Source: Candidatus Aenigmatarchaeota archaeon (GTDB lineage Archaea; Aenigmatarchaeota; Aenigmatarchaeia; CG10238-14; SCSR01). From it: DNA of 53,817 nt. Below, one piece after another: positions 5,687-53,336 of the stretch (position 1 is the first letter of the stretch; every line of letters begins with the position of its first letter). The stretch spans positions 1 through 53,817 of the forward strand of contig JASEGQ010000001.1 in the NCBI GenBank assembly GCA_030017875.1, read 5' to 3'. The notes under the pieces were generated by a model. It did not search any database. It was not told where the DNA came from and saw nothing but the letters and a program-made list of their open reading frames with translations. The position numbers were made by a program, and so were the translations under genes.

Positions 5687-6172
5687 GTGGTTTTTGTTCC
5701 AACGTTCAAGTTTGTTATAAACGACCCAGAAAAGAGGAAATCCTATCAGCTAGAGATAGATCAGAGCATGGCTTTGGGTTTGATCGGTAAAAGTATTGGA
5801 GAGGAATTTAATGGTGATATAATTGGTTTGCCTGGCTACACTTTGAAGATTACTGGTGGAACAGACAGAGACGGTTTTCCAATGCATCCTAAAGTAAAGG
5901 GACCGGGAAGGAAAAAAGTTCTGCTAACCTCTCCACCTTGCTTTCACCCGAGACTAAAAGGAGAGAGAAGGAGAAAGACAGTTCGTGGAAACACTATATC
6001 GGAGGCAATAGCTCAGATAAACGTCAAGATTGTTAAAAAAGGAGAAAAACCGATAGAGGAGTTAGTTCCGATTAAACAAAAAGAGAAAAAAGAGGAAAAG
6101 CCGAAAGAAGAAAAGAGAGTTGAAGAAAAAACAGAAGAAAAAGGAGGGGAGGAAATTAAAAAAGAAGCTTGA
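5687..6172 (+). CDS. rps6e: Ribosomal protein S6e with Lys/Glu-rich C-terminal tail
   Basis: FKFVINDPEKRKSYQLEIDQ...GGTDRDGFPMHP...RRRKTVRGNTI matches S6e. GTG start follows an AAAGGTG. The tail is low-complexity KEKKEEKPKEEK. Confidence 0.9.
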   Translation: MVFVPTFKFVINDPEKRKSYQLEIDQSMALGLIGKSIGEEFNGDIIGLPGYTLKITGGTDRDGFPMHPKVKGPGRKKVLLTSPPCFHPRLKGERRRKTVRGNTISEAIAQINVKIVKKGEKPIEELVPIKQKEKKEEKPKEEKRVEEKTEEKGGEEIKKEA

Positions 6173-7407
6173 AGAGTTAAGCCAAAAGGAAATTCCAGAA
6201 GTTAACATCGGAATGGTCGGACATTGGTGATAAGCCAACCGAATACGTTGCTCATGGTAAAACAACTCTAGTCGAGAGTTTGACAGGTAAATTAACCCTA
6301 ACTCATTCTGAAGAATTGAAACGAGGCATAACTATAAGGTTGGGCTATGCTGATGCTACTTTTTATAGATGTAAGAATGGGCATTATTGCACAAGCGAGA
6401 AGTGTCCGATTTGTTTCTCTGACTGTGAAATTTTAAGAACAGTAAGCTTTGTTGACGCTCCTGGTCACGAAACCTTAATGGCTACAGTTTTGACAGGAGC
6501 AGCTCTGATGGATGGCGCCTTGCTTGTAATAGCTGCAAACGAGAAGTGTCCTCAACCTCAAACTCGCGAGCATCTAGCTGCTTTAGAGTTAGTTGGGATA
6601 AAAAATGTGGTGATAGTTCAAAACAAGATCGATCTTGTTAGTGAAGAGAGAGCTTTAGAGAATTATAATGAGATAAAGGAATTCGTTAAGACTACGATCC
6701 TGGAAGGCTCGCCAATAATTCCTGTCTCGGCTCAACAAAGAGTTAATATCGATTTGGTTATCGAAGCTATTGAAAAGTTTGTACCAACACCTAAAAGGGA
6801 TGAAACAAAGGAGCTGAAGATGTTAATAGCAAGGAGTTTTGACATCAACAAACCTGGAACACAGCCAAAGAAGCTTTTGGGAGGAGTTCTAGGAGGAGCG
6901 ATAGTTCAAGGTAAATTAAAAATTGGTGACAAAATAGAAATCAGGCCTGGGATAAAGGTTGGAGCAAATTATAAGCCGATTTTAACCGAGGTAAAAGGGC
7001 TGCAAAAGGCTGGGATTGATCTGGAGGAAGCAGGGCCAGGAGGTTTGCTAGGTGTGCTAACAAGCTTAGACCCATTTCTAACAAAATCAGATTCTTTAGT
7101 CGGGAATGTTGTTGGTTTTCCTGGAAAGCTACCTGAAACAAGGGAGAGCCTAAGCATAGAGGTAAAGTTGCTCGAAAGGGTTGTCGGCTCTAAAGAGACT
7201 AAGGCTACAGCTCCGATAAAAATCAATGAGGAGCTGATGATAAATACGGGAACAGCGAGAAGTATTGGTAGCGTTACTTCAATAAAAAAAGATGTGATAG
7301 AATTGAAGCTAAAAGTTCCTGTTTGCGCAGAGAAAGGCGAAAAAACAGTTATTTCTAGACAAGTTTCTGGAAGATGGCGGTTAATAGCTTCTGGTACTGT
7401 TTGCTGA
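6120..7407 (+). CDS. eif2g: Translation initiation factor aIF2 gamma, interrupted: exon 1 about 6120..6222, exon 2 6245..7407
   Basis: Exon 2 reads HGKTTLVESLTGK...SEELKRGITIRLGYA...FVDAPGHETLMATVL...VQNKIDLV plus a zinc-knuckle insert, which is aIF2-gamma. The missing N-terminus PEVNIGMVGH is in the -1 neighbouring frame upstream. Removing 6223..6244 gives one 421-codon ORF. The TTG 6120 start is a guess, because no ATG precedes the beta-1 strand. Confidence 0.85.
6223..6244 (+). other. Candidate 22-nt bulge-helix-bulge (HBh') intron in aIF2-gamma pre-mRNA
   Basis: TCGG 6217-6220 pairs with CCGA 6239-6242. Bulge ACA is at 6221-6223. TTGG 6224-6227 pairs with CCAA 6235-6238 around the loop TGATAAG. 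A second bulge ATA is at 6243-6245. Cutting after the 2nd bulge nt on each side excises 22 nt and restores GGA CAC GTT GCT CAT GGT AAA (GHVAHGK). Confidence 0.6.
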
Positions 7408-20857: not shown

Positions 20858-21892
20858 TTATTTCCTTTTGATCCATTTTCTTCCAACTTTTTGATACATA
20901 GCTAACCATTTGTGAATTGCTTCCTGTCCACGCCCATATTTTTGTTTCACTTTTATAGCATCTATAAGCTTTTCTTGTTTACGCTTTATGCTGAAACCTA
21001 TATTTCTTGCAAATTTTATTGTATCGGGAAACCTATCGATAGTTAGTCTCCAAGCATCTTTTGTAGTCCTAGTTATATGCCCTTTAGATATACGGACAGT
21101 ACCTGCTCTAACATTTATTGGTATGTTGCTTTTTATGTTAAAATGATTTTTTAATAAGTTTTGTACATATTTTAAAATTGCACGATTAGTATTACACGCA
21201 ACAATGACCCTTACATCAAAACGACCCCTTCCCCTATCTTTGTAAATGGTTACATTAGGTGAACCTTCGCTATCTGCAAAACCTTGAATGAACTCCTTAG
21301 GAAAATTTTCTATAAATAGCCTTAAATAACTAAGCTGTTTTTTCAGAAAATTACAGAGAAGTTTACATCCAATCCAAACATAAGGCAGTCCATTTGACTC
21401 ACGAATTGGGCAAGTTTTCTCCAAAATCTTTGTCATACAATGAGCGAATTTTTCAACAAACTCCCTATCAATTGAAGTTAAGTGAATGTATCCTGTTTTA
21501 GTAGCACTCCCATCTCCAAATGCCACTCCGATAACATAGCTAATCTCCTTACTTATTTTTGGTGTAAAGAGAGTAAAATGAGAGGATGGATTAACTCCTT
21601 TGTGAATCCAATTTTCAACTGTGTTAGGATTTAGGTTTAATGCTTTTCCTATACGTACTTTGCCCCAAGCAAATTTTTGATGAAGTCGCAAGGCTTTTCT
21701 GTGCAAATTTATTCGTTCTTGGATTGGTATGTCTCTTGATTTTCTAGTAGGATATCCATTTATATCTTTTGCAGTTTTTTGTGAGTCCAATCCCAATTCC
21801 TTATGAAATTTCATAGCTTTCTTGTGTATTTGTATTCTTTTCTCTAAAGACAACTCACGAAGTTTTTGAATTTTTACTTCTTTCTTTTTCAT
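20858..21892 (-). CDS. Free-standing double-motif LAGLIDADG protein fused to N-terminal helix-turn-helix repeats
   Basis: Two LAGLIDADG motifs with acidic residues retained (YVIGVAFGDGSA, FIQGFADSEGSP). The N-terminal about 110 aa hold repeated RIxxHxKAxxxH units and the HTH IGKALNLNPNTVENWIHKG. ATG 21892 follows GGTGA, and GTG 21901 is an alternative. Confidence 0.8.
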   Translation of the reverse strand: MKKKEVKIQKLRELSLEKRIQIHKKAMKFHKELGLDSQKTAKDINGYPTRKSRDIPIQERINLHRKALRLHQKFAWGKVRIGKALNLNPNTVENWIHKGVNPSSHFTLFTPKISKEISYVIGVAFGDGSATKTGYIHLTSIDREFVEKFAHCMTKILEKTCPIRESNGLPYVWIGCKLLCNFLKKQLSYLRLFIENFPKEFIQGFADSEGSPNVTIYKDRGRGRFDVRVIVACNTNRAILKYVQNLLKNHFNIKSNIPINVRAGTVRISKGHITRTTKDAWRLTIDRFPDTIKFARNIGFSIKRKQEKLIDAIKVKQKYGRGQEAIHKWLAMYQKVGRKWIKRK

Positions 21893-21934
21893 TTTCACCA
21901 CTTTTTTATTTTGTAGACAATTGTGTTATGATGC

Positions 21935-40740: not shown

Positions 40741-41511
40741 TTAGTCTTTATATCTTTGGATGAAGCCGGGGAACAATTGATCAAATCTTTTCGATTCCTC
40801 CAAACACCCTATTAACTGTTTTCGCTTGGTAAGATTGGTAAAAGAGATGACAGATAGGAACTTTTTAAGATTTTTCAAATTTGATATAGTAAAACCAAGA
40901 TTTATACCGTTTACAGTCTTGCCCATTTCTACAACTTTCGATGGTCTGATACCTAGTTCTAAAAGCATCTTTCTAACATCTTCTAAGAACCTAACATGGT
41001 TATTGATAAACTTAGCACATTTACTCATATTGATTCCAATCATTCTTTGCGTACTACTTGATGGACGAATAAATTTTATTTTGATCCAACCTTCATCATC
41101 AAATACTGCTCTTATAAAAGCGATTTTTATTTCTTTCGATCCGTTCATCACCCATTCTGGAACTCTAAATGGCAAGAATACTTTTTCTCCGAGTGGTCCA
41201 CCAGCTAATGAAATTAACCTAGCTATATTGGTAGGAAACTCTATTTCCCATCCACCACTTTTTTTGAACTCTTTTGGTATTATGTTAGTAGAAAATGCTG
41301 CATTTACATTCGCCGTGACTTCGTCTACCAACTCTCTAGATTGGTTAAAGAAACTAAATTGCCTTTCAGTTAGGCTTCCGTCCCCAATGCAGTGGCCTAT
41401 TACAGATGCCAACTCAGGGGAAGCAACTATAGGAAATTTAATCTTTATTCTCCTTTTTCTATTTCTTGTTTTCAGTTCTATTATATGCTTCTCTATTTTA
41501 TTCAAGGTCAC
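40741..41511 (-). CDS. Free-standing double-motif LAGLIDADG protein
   Basis: LASVIGHCIGDGSL and FIRAVFDDEGWI are two LAGLIDADG motifs with acidic residues retained. GTG start at 41511 overlaps the upstream HTH ORF by 14 nt. Confidence 0.8.
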   Translation of the reverse strand: MTLNKIEKHIIELKTRNRKRRIKIKFPIVASPELASVIGHCIGDGSLTERQFSFFNQSRELVDEVTANVNAAFSTNIIPKEFKKSGGWEIEFPTNIARLISLAGGPLGEKVFLPFRVPEWVMNGSKEIKIAFIRAVFDDEGWIKIKFIRPSSSTQRMIGINMSKCAKFINNHVRFLEDVRKMLLELGIRPSKVVEMGKTVNGINLGFTISNLKNLKKFLSVISFTNLTKRKQLIGCLEESKRFDQLFPGFIQRYKD

Positions 41512-41737: not shown

Positions 41738-41753
41738 TTATCCTACGGAAGAA

Positions 41754-41765
41754 TTATATAAATAG
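41754..41765 (-). promoter_or_regulatory. TATA-box candidate (CTATTTATATAA on minus strand)
   Basis: An AT-rich box about 20-25 nt upstream of ATG 41737, suggesting a leaderless or near-leaderless transcript. Confidence 0.35.
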
Positions 41766-41780
41766 TTTATTTACCACTTG

Positions 41781-41818
41781 TGGGAGTGCACTTCCGATGG
41801 TTCCGATGAAACATTCAT
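41781..41818. promoter_or_regulatory. Operator-like motif shared with 21949..21976 (TTCCGATG unit duplicated here)
   Basis: The plus strand reads TGGGAGTGCACTTCCGATGGTTCCGATGAAACATTCAT. It holds the same position relative to the TATA candidate as the other copy. Confidence 0.45.
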
Positions 41819-42243
41819 CCCTATTGTAATTGCTCAATAGTCTAGTCTTTTACGCTCTTCTTTAGATATGTAGCCCTTCTTCAGTGCCCAACAAGGAAAA
41901 ATTATGAATCCTATGAAGTACTCCTTTTCCTAACAGTTTCGCCGCCTCTCTGTATTTTTTTCCCAAATACATGTAATATGCCATACCAATCGCGATGCTC
42001 CTGCTCCTCCCAGATTCGCAACAAACCAGTATATTCCTCGGCTATGTGTTTTTTGATGAATTCTATGGAATAGTCGAAAACCCAATCAGACTGTCTCCAT
42101 GTAAACAGTTAATTACAGCTGCGGATGTGGAGTATGGGTGGTGTTCGGATAACATAGGTCTTCGAGACACCCGATTATAATTTTGTTTTTAGGAGATTTT
42201 CTTGGCATAGAATAACTATTGGAAGTAGGCTTTAAAAATTTAG

Positions 42244-42591
42244 CTACAATTTTAATCCTTTTATTGTTCCTGAAACCTTTAATATTTTGAATATGACTCT
42301 CGTATCGCCTAAGCGTGAAATCAAGCCTAAGCAAGAGATTACTTGCGAAACAGATTTGTTATTACACCTAACCACACCAATCTGTCTTTCAATATCATAA
42401 AGGCTTTTAATCACATACATACTCATTTTACTAACTCCATGCTCACCAAAAAAGTCAAGTGCAACGTTCCATATTGCTTGTTCGATGTCCTCGTATACTA
42501 CAGGCTCTTCTGAAATTATCTTGAAAGCGATGTACCTTTCTCTTTCTCTAAGAGTAGGCAATAGAAATTTCAATTGATTTTTTCCCCTCAT
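42244..42591 (-). CDS. rnp2: RNase P protein component 2 (Pop5)
   Basis: LRERERYIAFKIISEEP...IGVVRCNNKS is a Pop5 pattern, adjacent to Rpp30. Confidence 0.8.
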   Translation of the reverse strand: MRGKNQLKFLLPTLRERERYIAFKIISEEPVVYEDIEQAIWNVALDFFGEHGVSKMSMYVIKSLYDIERQIGVVRCNNKSVSQVISCLGLISRLGDTRVIFKILKVSGTIKGLKL

Positions 42592-49831: not shown

Positions 49832-49940
49832 TGGGGTTGCTGGGATTTGAACCCAGATTATCAGCGCCCAAGGCTGAAGTCCTAGCCAAGTTAGACTACA
49901 ACTTCATGCCTATTGTCCCATGTTATTTTATTTCAACCCC
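49832..49940 (-). tRNA. tRNA-Pro (anticodon UGG) with an intervening sequence in the acceptor stem; no encoded CCA
   Basis: Minus strand: GGG[35 nt]GTTG TA GTCT AACTTGGCTA GGAC T TCAGC CTTGGGC GCTGA TAAT CTGGG TTCAAAT CCCAG CAACCCC A. All arms pair, and G37 follows the anticodon. Confidence 0.8.
49903..49937 (-). other. 35-nt intervening sequence between acceptor-stem positions 3 and 4 (boundary ambiguous within the duplicated GTTG)
   Basis: GGGGTTG at 49940-49934 is the exact complement of the 3' acceptor strand. The 7 nt adjacent to position 8 (GAAGTTG) pair only through GTTG. Confidence 0.5.
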
Positions 49941-49980: not shown

Positions 49981-50046
49981 GCTACCCCAACTAGATGTTT
50001 TTGATTCTAATGGGGTTGCTGGGATTTGAACCCAGGATTACTAGCA

Positions 50047-50058
50047 ATTTGGTCTAAT
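50047..50058 (-). other. 12-nt canonical BHB intron at tRNA position 37/38
   Basis: CTAGC-TTGG-GG|A-TTAGA-CCAA-AT|T-GCTAG: the anticodon stem is the outer helix, TTGG/CCAA is the 4-bp central helix, and the two 3-nt bulges are GGA and ATT. Confidence 0.75.
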
Positions 50059-50095
50059 CCCCAAGCTAGTGTCTTAGACCAAGCTAGACCACAAC

Positions 50096-50124
50096 TTAGC
50101 GTTAATATCCCGCCTTTATACAAC
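50096..50124 (-). other. 29-nt intervening sequence between acceptor-stem positions 3 and 4 (boundary ambiguous within the duplicated GTTG)
   Basis: GGGGTTG at 50127-50121 complements the 3' strand CAACCCC. The adjacent TAAGTTG pairs only through GTTG. Confidence 0.5.
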
Positions 50125-50160
50125 CCCAGCCATATTATATTTGATTAGAGGTCACAAAAT

Positions 50161-51599: not shown

Positions 51600-53186
51600 T
51601 TAGCCTGCATATTTAACAATCTTTGTTATAGTTCCTATTCCTTTTGTCTTTCCTTCTCTGAAAACAAATCTATCTCCCACTTCTAGAAAGTGTGGATTAT
51701 ATTTGAAGGTAAATCTAACCAAACCAGAATCTCCAGCTTTTAGGTATTCTTTATCTAAGCACTCTATCCTAGCAACTTCTGCTGTTGTCTGGCAATGAAC
51801 AACAGGCTCATAATTTGTAGCAATTCTTGTAGGATGGTTCAAAACTAGAATTTCTGCCTCAAAACTTTTTACTGCCCTTGGTTTAACAGATTCATCGCAG
51901 AGTACCATCCCTCTTTTTACTTCCTCATGCTTCATCCCTCTTATCGCTATACCAACTACTAAACCAGCATCAGCCTCTTCCAAAGGGTGGTAATGCATCT
52001 CTATGCTCTTTGCTTTAACTTTTTTGAAATTTCCAGAAGCATCTGGCCCTAGCAATAGTTCAGAACCAGCTTTTAGCTTCCCTTGCTTAATTGTCCCCGA
52101 AACAACCGTTCCTGCACCAGAAACATTGTAAATCCTATCGATAAACATCAAAAAAGGTTTTTCCAATTCTTTTTTCCTTTCAGGCAAAGAATACAATAAT
52201 TTATTTAGCAAGTCATAACCTTCCAAATTTACTGCAGAAGTCCTAATAACAGGCACGATCATGTCCAGTTTGTCTATTACAAGTCCGATATCCTTTTCAT
52301 ACCTTACAGGAAAAGGAACTCTTCCAACATTTTTTAATAGTTCTTCTATTTGTTGTTCAACCTCGCTGATTCTTTTCTCTCCTACTCTATCAGTCTTTGT
52401 AATACAAACTATTACTGGTAAATTAACACCTAGGAGAATTCCTAAGTGCTCTTTTGTTATATTTGTGATACCATCATCAGCAGCAACTATAAGTAAGCTG
52501 TAGTCTAGGCTTTGCCCAACCAAACCACGAATCGTGGTCCTGAGAAATGGTTCATGACCCGGAGCGTCGATAAAGCTTACAAGCTTGTCTGCTTTTTCTA
52601 CAATCTTTGCTCTCTCCTTTTTGTTCAAAGGATTCTTTAGATGTAAAATTTCACCAGCTCTGAAGCCGTATAAACCATAGTGCAAATCAGCTGAAAGGCC
52701 TCGTTCTATTTCGTGTGGTAAAACGTTGAGATATAACCAAGCCTTGTGTGATCTATCAGCTTCTCCTGTCATCAAGGTAGCGATAAGAGTTGACTTTCCA
52801 TGTCGAACATGACCAGCAGTTGCCACTATGATATGCTGCTTCATCTTAGTTTCATATTTTCTTGATATCAAAATTCTTCCTATAGTTTTTCCATTTTCTT
52901 CGAATTTCTCAACCTTTTCTATTTCAGCACTATTTTCTCTAGCAATAACCCTTAAAACATTCAAACTTTCTTCGAATTCTAATTCTGTCAAACCTTTTGC
53001 ATTTCCTTTATCATCCACTCCTAGAATATAGACAGCTCTTCCGTCTCCTGTTTCGAGTCTAAACTTCATTTGACTCGCTAAATGCTGCTTCTTGTCATTT
53101 TTTAAATGAGTTTCAGGACTAAGTTTTTCCTTAAACTCGATGTTTTTATTCTCTTTTTTTGGAATTGTTATACTTTTTTCTGCCAT
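51600..53186 (-). CDS. EF-Tu-superfamily GTPase, GTPBP1-like
   Basis: G1 AGHVRHGKST, G3 DAPGH, G4 TKTD, followed by beta-barrel domains II/III and preceded by an about 120-aa N-terminal domain. The in-frame start at 53240 is an alternative. Confidence 0.7.
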   Translation of the reverse strand: MAEKSITIPKKENKNIEFKEKLSPETHLKNDKKQHLASQMKFRLETGDGRAVYILGVDDKGNAKGLTELEFEESLNVLRVIARENSAEIEKVEKFEENGKTIGRILISRKYETKMKQHIIVATAGHVRHGKSTLIATLMTGEADRSHKAWLYLNVLPHEIERGLSADLHYGLYGFRAGEILHLKNPLNKKERAKIVEKADKLVSFIDAPGHEPFLRTTIRGLVGQSLDYSLLIVAADDGITNITKEHLGILLGVNLPVIVCITKTDRVGEKRISEVEQQIEELLKNVGRVPFPVRYEKDIGLVIDKLDMIVPVIRTSAVNLEGYDLLNKLLYSLPERKKELEKPFLMFIDRIYNVSGAGTVVSGTIKQGKLKAGSELLLGPDASGNFKKVKAKSIEMHYHPLEEADAGLVVGIAIRGMKHEEVKRGMVLCDESVKPRAVKSFEAEILVLNHPTRIATNYEPVVHCQTTAEVARIECLDKEYLKAGDSGLVRFTFKYNPHFLEVGDRFVFREGKTKGIGTITKIVKYAG

Positions 53187-53336
53187 GCTTTGAGAAAAAT
53201 TTAATTGCAATAGGCTTAAACTTAACTTTAATTGCTCCATGGCTTCTAAATAAAATTTGAATAGCTTATTCTTTCCGTTTTGACTCTAGTTTAAATCTAA
53301 AAGATTTAAAATAAGATATAAATTAGGTGTGTTAAA

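Follow-up and report, generated by a model that had tools for sequence, protein, structure and literature searches.

Organization of the aIF2-gamma locus

The gene for the archaeal translation initiation factor aIF2-gamma lies on contig JASEGQ010000001.1 of a Candidatus Aenigmatarchaeota archaeon, the first 53,817 nt of which (53.8 kb, G+C content 37%) were analyzed here and are referred to as the window. The reading frame of this gene is broken inside the codons of its GTP-binding loop (P-loop), and an initial annotation of the window had attributed the break to a 22-nt bulge-helix-bulge (BHB) intron of the type removed by the archaeal tRNA-splicing endonuclease. The analysis described below supports that interpretation, to which we assign a probability of roughly 0.88. 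The parts of the gene are as follows:

6120-6222, + strand: aIF2-gamma exon 1; first possible start codon TTG at 6120; ends at the first base of a His codon, C6222
6223-6244, + strand: putative 22-nt intron AUUGGUGAUAAGCCAACCGAAU; phase 1, splitting the His codon C/AC of the G1 motif GHVAHGKT
6245-7407, + strand: aIF2-gamma exon 2; begins AC GTT GCT CAT GGT AAA; stop codon at 7405-7407

The frame of exon 1 reads ...KEIPEVNIGMVGH up to CAT at 6222-6224 and continues with TGG TGA TAA. The frame of exon 2 reads GTT GCT CAT GGT AAA ACA (VAHGKT) from position 6247 and is open up to its stop codon. The break, at 6222-6246, was reproduced base for base. Removal of 6223-6244 in silico yielded GGA CAC GTT GCT CAT GGT AAA and the single 421-codon open reading frame (ORF) from TTG 6120 that had been proposed. 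This spliced ORF reads ...NIGMVGHVAHGKTTLVESLTG..., with the P-loop GHVAHGKT intact and no other lesion across its 421 codons. Its product scored 619.8 bits against the NCBIfam aIF2-gamma equivalog model (cut-off 315), and it aligned without a gap across the junction with Pyrococcus aIF2-gamma (1kk0), EVNIGMVGHVDHGKTTL in the former corresponding to EVNIGMVGHVAHGKTTL in the latter. In the predicted mRNA, the exon junction is ...GGUCGGAC followed directly by ACGUU.... Removal of 6224-6245 or 6225-6246 would encode the identical protein, and it is the BHB geometry that picks 6223-6244. Without splicing, translation could yield no more than a 36-residue peptide, or else a protein that lacks strand beta-1 together with the P-loop's first glycine. 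No second copy of aIF2-gamma was found within the window.

The start codon of exon 1 is uncertain (TTG 6120 or another) as no ATG is present upstream of the conserved IPEVNIG segment. The preceding S6e gene (5687-6172) encodes a long Lys/Glu-rich tail and overlaps the putative start of exon 1 by ∼50 nt in another frame.

Predicted fold of the pre-mRNA

The following elements make up the hairpin that spans the frame break. Invariance refers to the 13 distinct intron-bearing sequences that were compared (see below).

6216, + strand: G6216, pairs with C6246; the sole invariant outer pair
6217-6220, + strand: 5' strand of the central helix, UCGG, in exon 1 (codons GTC GGA); pairs with 6239-6242; invariant in 13/13
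6221-6223, + strand: 5' bulge ACA, 3 nt; predicted cleavage between C6222 and A6223; invariant in 13/13
6224-6238, + strand: inner helix UUGG (6224-6227) with CCAA (6235-6238), closed by the 7-nt loop UGAUAAG (6228-6234), which holds the stop codons TGA and TAA
6239-6242, + strand: 3' strand of the central helix, CCGA, within the intron; invariant in 13/13
6243-6245, + strand: 3' bulge AUA, 3 nt (A[U/C]A in relatives); predicted cleavage between U6244 and A6245

Each base of this pairing was found where the initial annotation had placed it. When positions 6205-6260 were folded with RNAfold, the BHB core was the unconstrained minimum-free-energy structure, at -12.7 kcal/mol. The hairpin had also been described as lacking a convincing outer helix, with G6216:C6246 as its only outer pair. 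That pair is indeed the only invariant one, but the computed fold adds an imperfect helix of AAUG (6212-6215) with CGUU (6246-6249), which leaves G6216 unpaired and is not kept among relatives; three of these (L035-L037) have a second outer pair (C:G). Given that the strict hBHBh' form needs an outer helix of at least 2 bp, the aIF2-gamma motif is best called a relaxed or near-canonical BHB form. It is plausible that the weak outer helix would require an endonuclease of broad specificity. Searches against Rfam at gathering and E-value thresholds matched only two tRNA regions of the window and returned nothing at 6200-6250.

The insert in orthologous genes

The best 120 protein matches of the spliced product were examined. 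At the top were aIF2-gamma proteins of 70-83% identity, and the named matches came from Candidatus Aenigmatarchaeota (DPANN lineage). An intact GHV[AS]HGKT was present in 108 of the 120; the remaining 12 had aberrant N termini, and every one of these carries an insert in its DNA. With one more locus added, the insert was found at the identical codon in 13 further assemblies, as expected if it is an intron common to orthologues. The intron-bearing assemblies were drawn from ENA, JGI, NCBI and Logan data, and the scans of contig collections returned at least 19 genome and at least 10 metagenome loci, the candidate list being crowded by the low-complexity N terminus MKKKQKKK. The comparison set consists of 13 distinct sequences, all Aenigmatarchaeota-like, namely the window, L023 and L030-L040; L041 is a near-duplicate of L030, the two being independent assemblies of one lineage from different data sets that share 99.9% identity as well as the intron.

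Gene calls that start with MSDIGDKPTEHVAHGKT, LEWSDIGDKPTEYVAHGKT, MAGKPTEYVAHGKT or MVWSDIGSKPTEYVSHGKT correspond to a window-type insert read in the frame of exon 2. A second version among the aberrant N termini reads LLKATEY/HV[AS]HGKT, and a further gene-called ORF in relatives starts LLKATEYVSHGKT. Gene order is kept around the insert-bearing genes, comprising a TrpRS/TyrRS-type class-I synthetase on the opposite strand, S6e, aIF2-gamma, a small pilin-like ORF, PIN and H+-PPase, which argues that the copies are orthologues and not paralogues.

The insert takes four lengths:

20 nt: L033, L034, L035
21 nt: L036, L037, L038, L040
22 nt: window, L023, L030, L032, L039
23 nt: L031

When both bulges are cut behind their second nucleotide, NIG[MLI]VGHV[AS]HGKT is regained in 13/13 sequences and at all four lengths. 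The 21-nt inserts, which keep the frame, contain an in-frame stop codon in 4/4 cases. The consensus over the 13 sequences is GUCGGACA, then UUGN-loop-NCAA, then CCGA A[U/C]A C GUN. Invariant throughout are the central helix UCGG:CCGA, the 5' bulge ACA and the closing G:C pair, with the 3' bulge being either AUA or ACA. The inner helix UUGN:NCAA has 4-5 bp, and its loop of 3-7 nt varies in both sequence and length. At the last inner pair (6227:6235 in the window), a 10-sequence alignment showed G:C in five sequences, C:G in four and U:A in one, and three later loci have C:G, G:C and C:G. All 90 pair-cells of that alignment held standard base pairs, as against 12-42% when the 3' partners were slid by 1-3 columns. 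RNAalifold, applied to the alignment, returned the central helix and the inner helix as its only predicted pairing, and unconstrained folds of the individual sequences recovered 8/8 core pairs in 12 of 13, with 7/8 in L030.

Sequence variation on either side of the insert falls mainly at third codon positions. In the 14 codons of exon 1 before the His codon, variable columns at codon positions 1, 2 and 3 number 6, 5 and 12, and NPKLIPEVNIGxVG is kept. The corresponding values for exon 2 are 12, 9 and 19 of 20. Both exons are under coding constraint and purifying selection. Two conserved coding segments that stand in different frames, or are separated by a stop codon, must be joined precisely. 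The codons GTC GGA CA are used by 13/13 intron-bearing genes and by 2/9 intronless relatives, the latter having GTT GGG, GTA GGC, GTG GGG, ATT GGT, CTT GGT and others; constraint also extends to the exon bases engaged in pairing with the intron. An insert at the same codon, an invariant core, a single cut rule, coding constraint on exon 1 and endonuclease-type introns elsewhere in the genome, all of which the BHB intron predicts, were each observed in silico.

Proposed splicing pathway

In the pathway that we propose, exon-1 UCGG of the pre-mRNA would pair with intron CCGA, forming a 4-bp central helix with a 3-nt bulge at each end, one on either strand, and with the intron hairpin stacked inside it. 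The endonuclease EndA would then cut after the second nucleotide of each bulge, between C6222 and A6223 and between U6244 and A6245, and an RtcB-type ligase would join the exons. The mature mRNA, GGA CAC GUU GCU CAU GGU AAA at the junction, would be translated into a normal 421-residue aIF2-gamma. Exon ligation by RtcB is an established archaeal pathway. Because the unspliced mRNA gives no full-length aIF2-gamma, production of the protein would depend on the tRNA-splicing machinery.

The archaeal tRNA-splicing endonuclease is known to cut BHB motifs in tRNA, rRNA and mRNA contexts (PMC7714728, PMC2738675). According to Kaneta et al., DPANN endonucleases are diverse, including alpha4 forms with an L3 loop, (alpha-beta)2 and epsilon2 forms, and those that bear a loop go with disrupted tRNA genes (PMC5829648).

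Several observations weigh against this interpretation. The cleavage by EndA, the ligation by RtcB and the spliced transcript itself are all deduced from DNA sequence, and neither EndA nor RtcB was detected by Pfam scans of the 50 ORF translations of at least 120 residues in the 53.8-kb window. The outer helix is limited to 1-2 bp and is absent from the RNAalifold consensus of the alignment, and a strict alpha4-type endonuclease might fail to cut a motif of this kind. Covariation is limited to one pair, the other eight pairs never varying, and the four exon bases of the central helix and the closing pair sit in constrained codons, so part of the invariance could stem from the codons. The hairpin is also not exceptional in energy: its fold had a z-score of -0.48 against shuffled sequences. 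A scan for BHB motifs of equal strictness (central helix of 4 Watson-Crick bp, two 3-nt bulges, 4 bp or more in the inner helix, one or more outer pairs and an intron length of 12-80 nt) counted 67 motifs over both strands of the window compared with a mean of 87 in 20 shuffles.

Since the motif is as common in shuffled sequence, the hairpin alone was dropped as evidence. From the density of motifs in the scan, the chance that one would fall in any of the three registers that restore GHV was roughly estimated at 3e-5, and the comparative data make a chance origin untenable.

Alternative explanations

The same protein could in principle be made from uncut RNA by translational bypassing, in which the ribosome would take off from the His codon CAU (6222-6224), skip the hairpin, land on [C/U]AC (6244-6246) and resume at GUU, yielding GHVAHGKT. 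Such a process would tolerate all four insert lengths, the landing site being set by the codon and not by the frame, and the arrangement of a hairpin after the take-off codon, with stop codons 1-2 codons downstream in 11/13 sequences, is suggestive of it, as is a landing triplet of CAC, cognate for tRNA-His, in 5/13 sequences. In the other 8/13, however, this triplet is UAC, which mismatches the take-off codon. A stop codon never directly follows the take-off codon in the 13 sequences, unlike in bypassing of the T4 gene 60 type, and L031 and L032 have no stop in the exon-1 frame inside the insert, the first occurring 15-16 codons past the His codon. Nor would bypassing lead one to expect a pair of 3-nt bulges on opposite strands with exactly 4 bp between them, the recognition geometry of the endonuclease. 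We know of no archaeal case and consider this explanation very improbable.

Slightly less probable still is that the insert is retained, through recoding (+1 or -1 frameshifting or stop codon readthrough) or through a start in the frame of exon 2, located within the insert or immediately upstream of it. The product would have an extra segment of ∼7 residues or would lack exon 1, an example of a peptide reading through the insert being GDKPTEYVAHGK. Gene callers did return ORFs of this kind, starting MSDIGDKPTEHVAHGKT, LEWSDIGDKPTEYVAHGKT and LLKATEYVSHGKT, and the exon-2 frame of the window is open back to 6190. Recoding would nonetheless have to be of -1, readthrough, +1 and +2 type in different lineages to accommodate inserts of 20, 21, 22 and 23 nt, respectively, and the retained product would have a P-loop without its first glycine (E-Y-V-A-H-G-K-T) or would be a protein without strand beta-1. 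Against both forms, the exon-1 peptide NPKLIPEVNIGxVG is conserved, with changes mainly at third positions, implying that it is translated and needed, and the peptides encoded by the insert (DIGDKPTEY versus LLKATEY) differ between lineages in step with RNA pairing and not with protein conservation. As for a decaying pseudogene or an error of sequencing or assembly, the window by itself could be read as a broken essential gene with a statistically ordinary hairpin. This explanation, the least likely of those considered and one that we regard as close to negligible, is contradicted by the presence of the same insert in 13 other assemblies, including the near-identical L030 and L041 from different data sets, and by purifying selection on both exons, the lack of any further lesion over 421 codons, the conserved synteny and the single copy in the window. 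That one cut rule restores the P-loop over inserts of 20, 21, 22 and 23 nt cannot be explained by frameshifting, readthrough, a pseudogene or assembly error.

Introns in tRNA-Pro genes of the window

Two tRNA genes on the opposite strand of the window are themselves interrupted:

50011-50127, - strand: tRNA-Pro(GGG), with two introns, a canonical one of 12 nt (50047-50058) and one of 29 nt in the acceptor stem (50096-50124)
49832-49940, - strand: tRNA-Pro(UGG), with a non-canonical 35-nt intron in the acceptor stem (49903-49937)

The 12-nt intron of tRNA-Pro(GGG), which the initial annotation had cited as obeying the same cut rule as the aIF2-gamma insert, was verified as doing so, with a UUGG:CCAA helix and bulges GGA and AUU. 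Taking out the acceptor-stem inserts converted stems with 2-3 mismatches into perfect stems in both tRNA-Pro genes, and ARAGORN, given tRNA-Pro(GGG) minus the 29 nt, reported tRNA-Pro(ggg) with a 12-nt intron. The true 5' ends of both genes had been missed by ARAGORN and Rfam, and the Rfam tmRNA model spans 50008-50127. The registers of the acceptor-stem introns are ambiguous by up to 4 nt in both genes owing to a GTTG repeat. A strict BHB was sought for each and rejected. In tRNA-Pro(UGG), UGUG:CAUG with bulges GGG and AAG would be cut at the right places, but the helix contains two G·U pairs and has no flanking helices; in tRNA-Pro(GGG), one central pair would be C-C. The acceptor-stem introns would appear to fit only a relaxed BHB. 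That two of the three tRNA introns in the window are non-canonical gives indirect support to the view that the host handles unusual endonuclease substrates.

The 12-nt intron of tRNA-Pro(GGG), AUUAGACCAAAU, and the aIF2-gamma intron AUUGGUGAUAAGCCAACCGAAU share AUU at their start, an internal CCAA and AAU at their end, and the central helix of the former, UUGG:CCAA, has the sequence of the inner helix of the latter. This likeness may be a coincidence or a hint about origin.

Distribution and turnover of the intron

A neighbour-joining tree built from 114 proteins placed the genes with an intron in five or more groups, among which intronless genes were interspersed; coming from a single-gene tree, this distribution is only indicative. 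Assembled spliced transcripts were sought as intact members of the 90% protein clusters, and the sole intact member, P0121, proved to be encoded on a genomic contig from a metagenome-assembled genome (L001; GTDB species representative CAZRMN010000003.1). This intronless locus shares its cluster with the intron-bearing L030 and L041, and its DNA is ∼97% identical to theirs over ∼4.2 kb. Exactly the intron is missing from L001, where the site reads GGG CAC GTT. The tracts compared were:

L001, 3001-3100; L030, 2980-3100; L041, 1480-1600: hyper-divergent for ∼55 nt around the intron site

Within a 90-nt test window, 16 mismatches lay between -12 and +40 nt relative to the site, against a background of 2.9% (binomial P ∼8e-9). 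A hyper-divergent flanking tract of this kind resembles a recombination or co-conversion tract and points to replacement by a diverged allele via homologous recombination; the intron has probably been gained or lost in this way at least once. Loss by reverse transcription of spliced mRNA, as proposed for the cbf5 intron (PMC2738675), predicts no divergent tract and so does not fit the comparison of L001 with L030 and L041. No close donor of the L001 or L030 tract was present among the loci compared, the nearest showing 11/60 and 15/60 differences, and these loci are compatible with either gain in L030/L041 or loss in L001.

A broader scenario can be entertained, in which the mini-intron is a mobile or laterally exchanged non-coding element that spreads or vanishes between Aenigmatarchaeota lineages by recombination of a ∼55-nt exon tract, in a homing-like manner with no homing enzyme, and in which it could couple translation initiation to the state of tRNA splicing in the way of XBP1/HAC1. 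Taken as a whole, this combination strikes us as speculative and rather unlikely.

Relation to known introns

The closest known counterpart is the intron of cbf5 pre-mRNA (Watanabe et al. 2002; Yoshinari et al. 2006; Yokobori et al. 2009, PMC2738675). It occurs in Desulfurococcales and Sulfolobales, is 16-39 bp long with a variable and sometimes in-frame length, is patchily distributed, often has a relaxed motif and interrupts a catalytic codon (PMC2738675). The aIF2-gamma intron resembles it as a short insert (20-23 nt) with BHB-type boundaries in a coding gene, where it splits the codon of a functionally critical residue, and in its patchy distribution and its length, which varies between species and is in-frame in some; secondary loss has been inferred for cbf5. 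Removal by the tRNA-splicing endonuclease, shown for cbf5, is predicted for aIF2-gamma. The two differ in host, cbf5 introns being found in Crenarchaeota and the present one in aIF2-gamma of Aenigmatarchaeota (DPANN), and they have no sequence in common. The bulges and 4-bp helix in aIF2-gamma are fully canonical and invariant, and only the outer helix is weak. Turnover also appears to differ, reverse transcription having been proposed for loss from cbf5 while the near-identical pair in aIF2-gamma points to recombination between alleles. Splicing of cbf5 has been demonstrated by experiment, whereas that of the aIF2-gamma intron is predicted from DNA sequence. Membership in the cbf5 intron lineage was considered and rejected, the host gene being aIF2-gamma; the element is of the same kind and of another lineage.

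The BHB intron in the HVO_1309 mRNA of Haloferax volcanii is likewise an endonuclease substrate within an mRNA but lies in the 5' untranslated region (46 nt), leaving the reading frame uninterrupted; as of 2020, cbf5 was the only other example in mRNA (PMC7714728). Archaeal pre-tRNA introns are both canonical (37/38) and non-canonical (Marck & Grosjean 2003; PMC5829648). Among them, the tRNA-Pro(GGG) intron of the window matches the aIF2-gamma intron in geometry and cut rule, and the latter has a size inside the tRNA-intron range of 11-175 nt (PMC2738675). The host RNA is different: with an mRNA as substrate there is no tRNA body, and recognition would have to rest on the BHB alone.

A more distant parallel is the unconventional cytoplasmic splicing of XBP1/HAC1 mRNA in eukaryotes, in which IRE1 cleaves and RtcB or Trl1 ligates. 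There, an intron in the coding region (26 nt in XBP1) is excised by an endonuclease whose cut produces a 2',3'-cyclic phosphate, RtcB-type joining follows, and the frame is changed. Common to both would be a short coding-region intron, removal of which changes the frame, and a splice-gated switch. In contrast to aIF2-gamma, the XBP1/HAC1 nuclease is IRE1 and not EndA, and its substrate is a pair of twin stem-loops and not a BHB; a regulatory role for the aIF2-gamma intron is only hypothetical.

In the full-text literature searched, coverage of which is incomplete, there was no prior report of an intron in aIF2-gamma, nor any of BHB introns within coding sequence from DPANN or Aenigmatarchaeota. 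By that literature, the aIF2-gamma intron would be the second, independent case in coding sequence beside cbf5. Splicing of mRNA by the tRNA machinery would then extend beyond Crenarchaeota and to an essential translation GTPase, suggesting that it is no crenarchaeal oddity. Frame-break and BHB scans of DPANN genomes may reveal more cases, and the 13 natural variants, together with the near-isogenic pair with and without the intron, form a compact system for studying recognition in the absence of a tRNA body, gain and loss, and regulation.

Consequences for annotation

The public gene calls are wrong at the N terminus in all 12 relatives, starting either in the frame of the intron or downstream of the P-loop. 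The miscalled proteins are P0003, P0009, P0017, P0042, P0051, P0059, P0060, P0062, P0087, P0089, P0108 and P0116, together with the members of their clusters. Several carry the label 'translation initiation factor 2 subunit 3'; not one bears a flag for an interruption. A systematic error is exposed here, in that current pipelines mis-annotate intron-bearing aIF2-gamma genes.

Other loci in the window

Three further protein-coding genes and one gap between genes were noted:

20858-21901, - strand: free-standing LAGLIDADG_3 homing-endonuclease-like ORF, 347 residues, between FBPase and GH57
40741-41511, - strand: free-standing LAGLIDADG_3 homing-endonuclease-like ORF, 256 residues, between proteasome alpha and RNase P proteins
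41740-42240: ∼500 nt with no convincing ORF, bounded by the second LAGLIDADG ORF and by a small ORF (42244-42591) next to the RNase P p30 gene
51600-53240, - strand: EF-Tu-family GTPase, 546 residues

Neither LAGLIDADG_3 ORF lies obviously within an intron or intein. The region at 41740-42240 gave no Rfam match even at E ≤ 0.05 and might contain an RNA gene that is undescribed or highly divergent. In the EF-Tu-family GTPase, the GTP_EFTU domain starts at residue 134, following an N-terminal extension of ∼133 residues.

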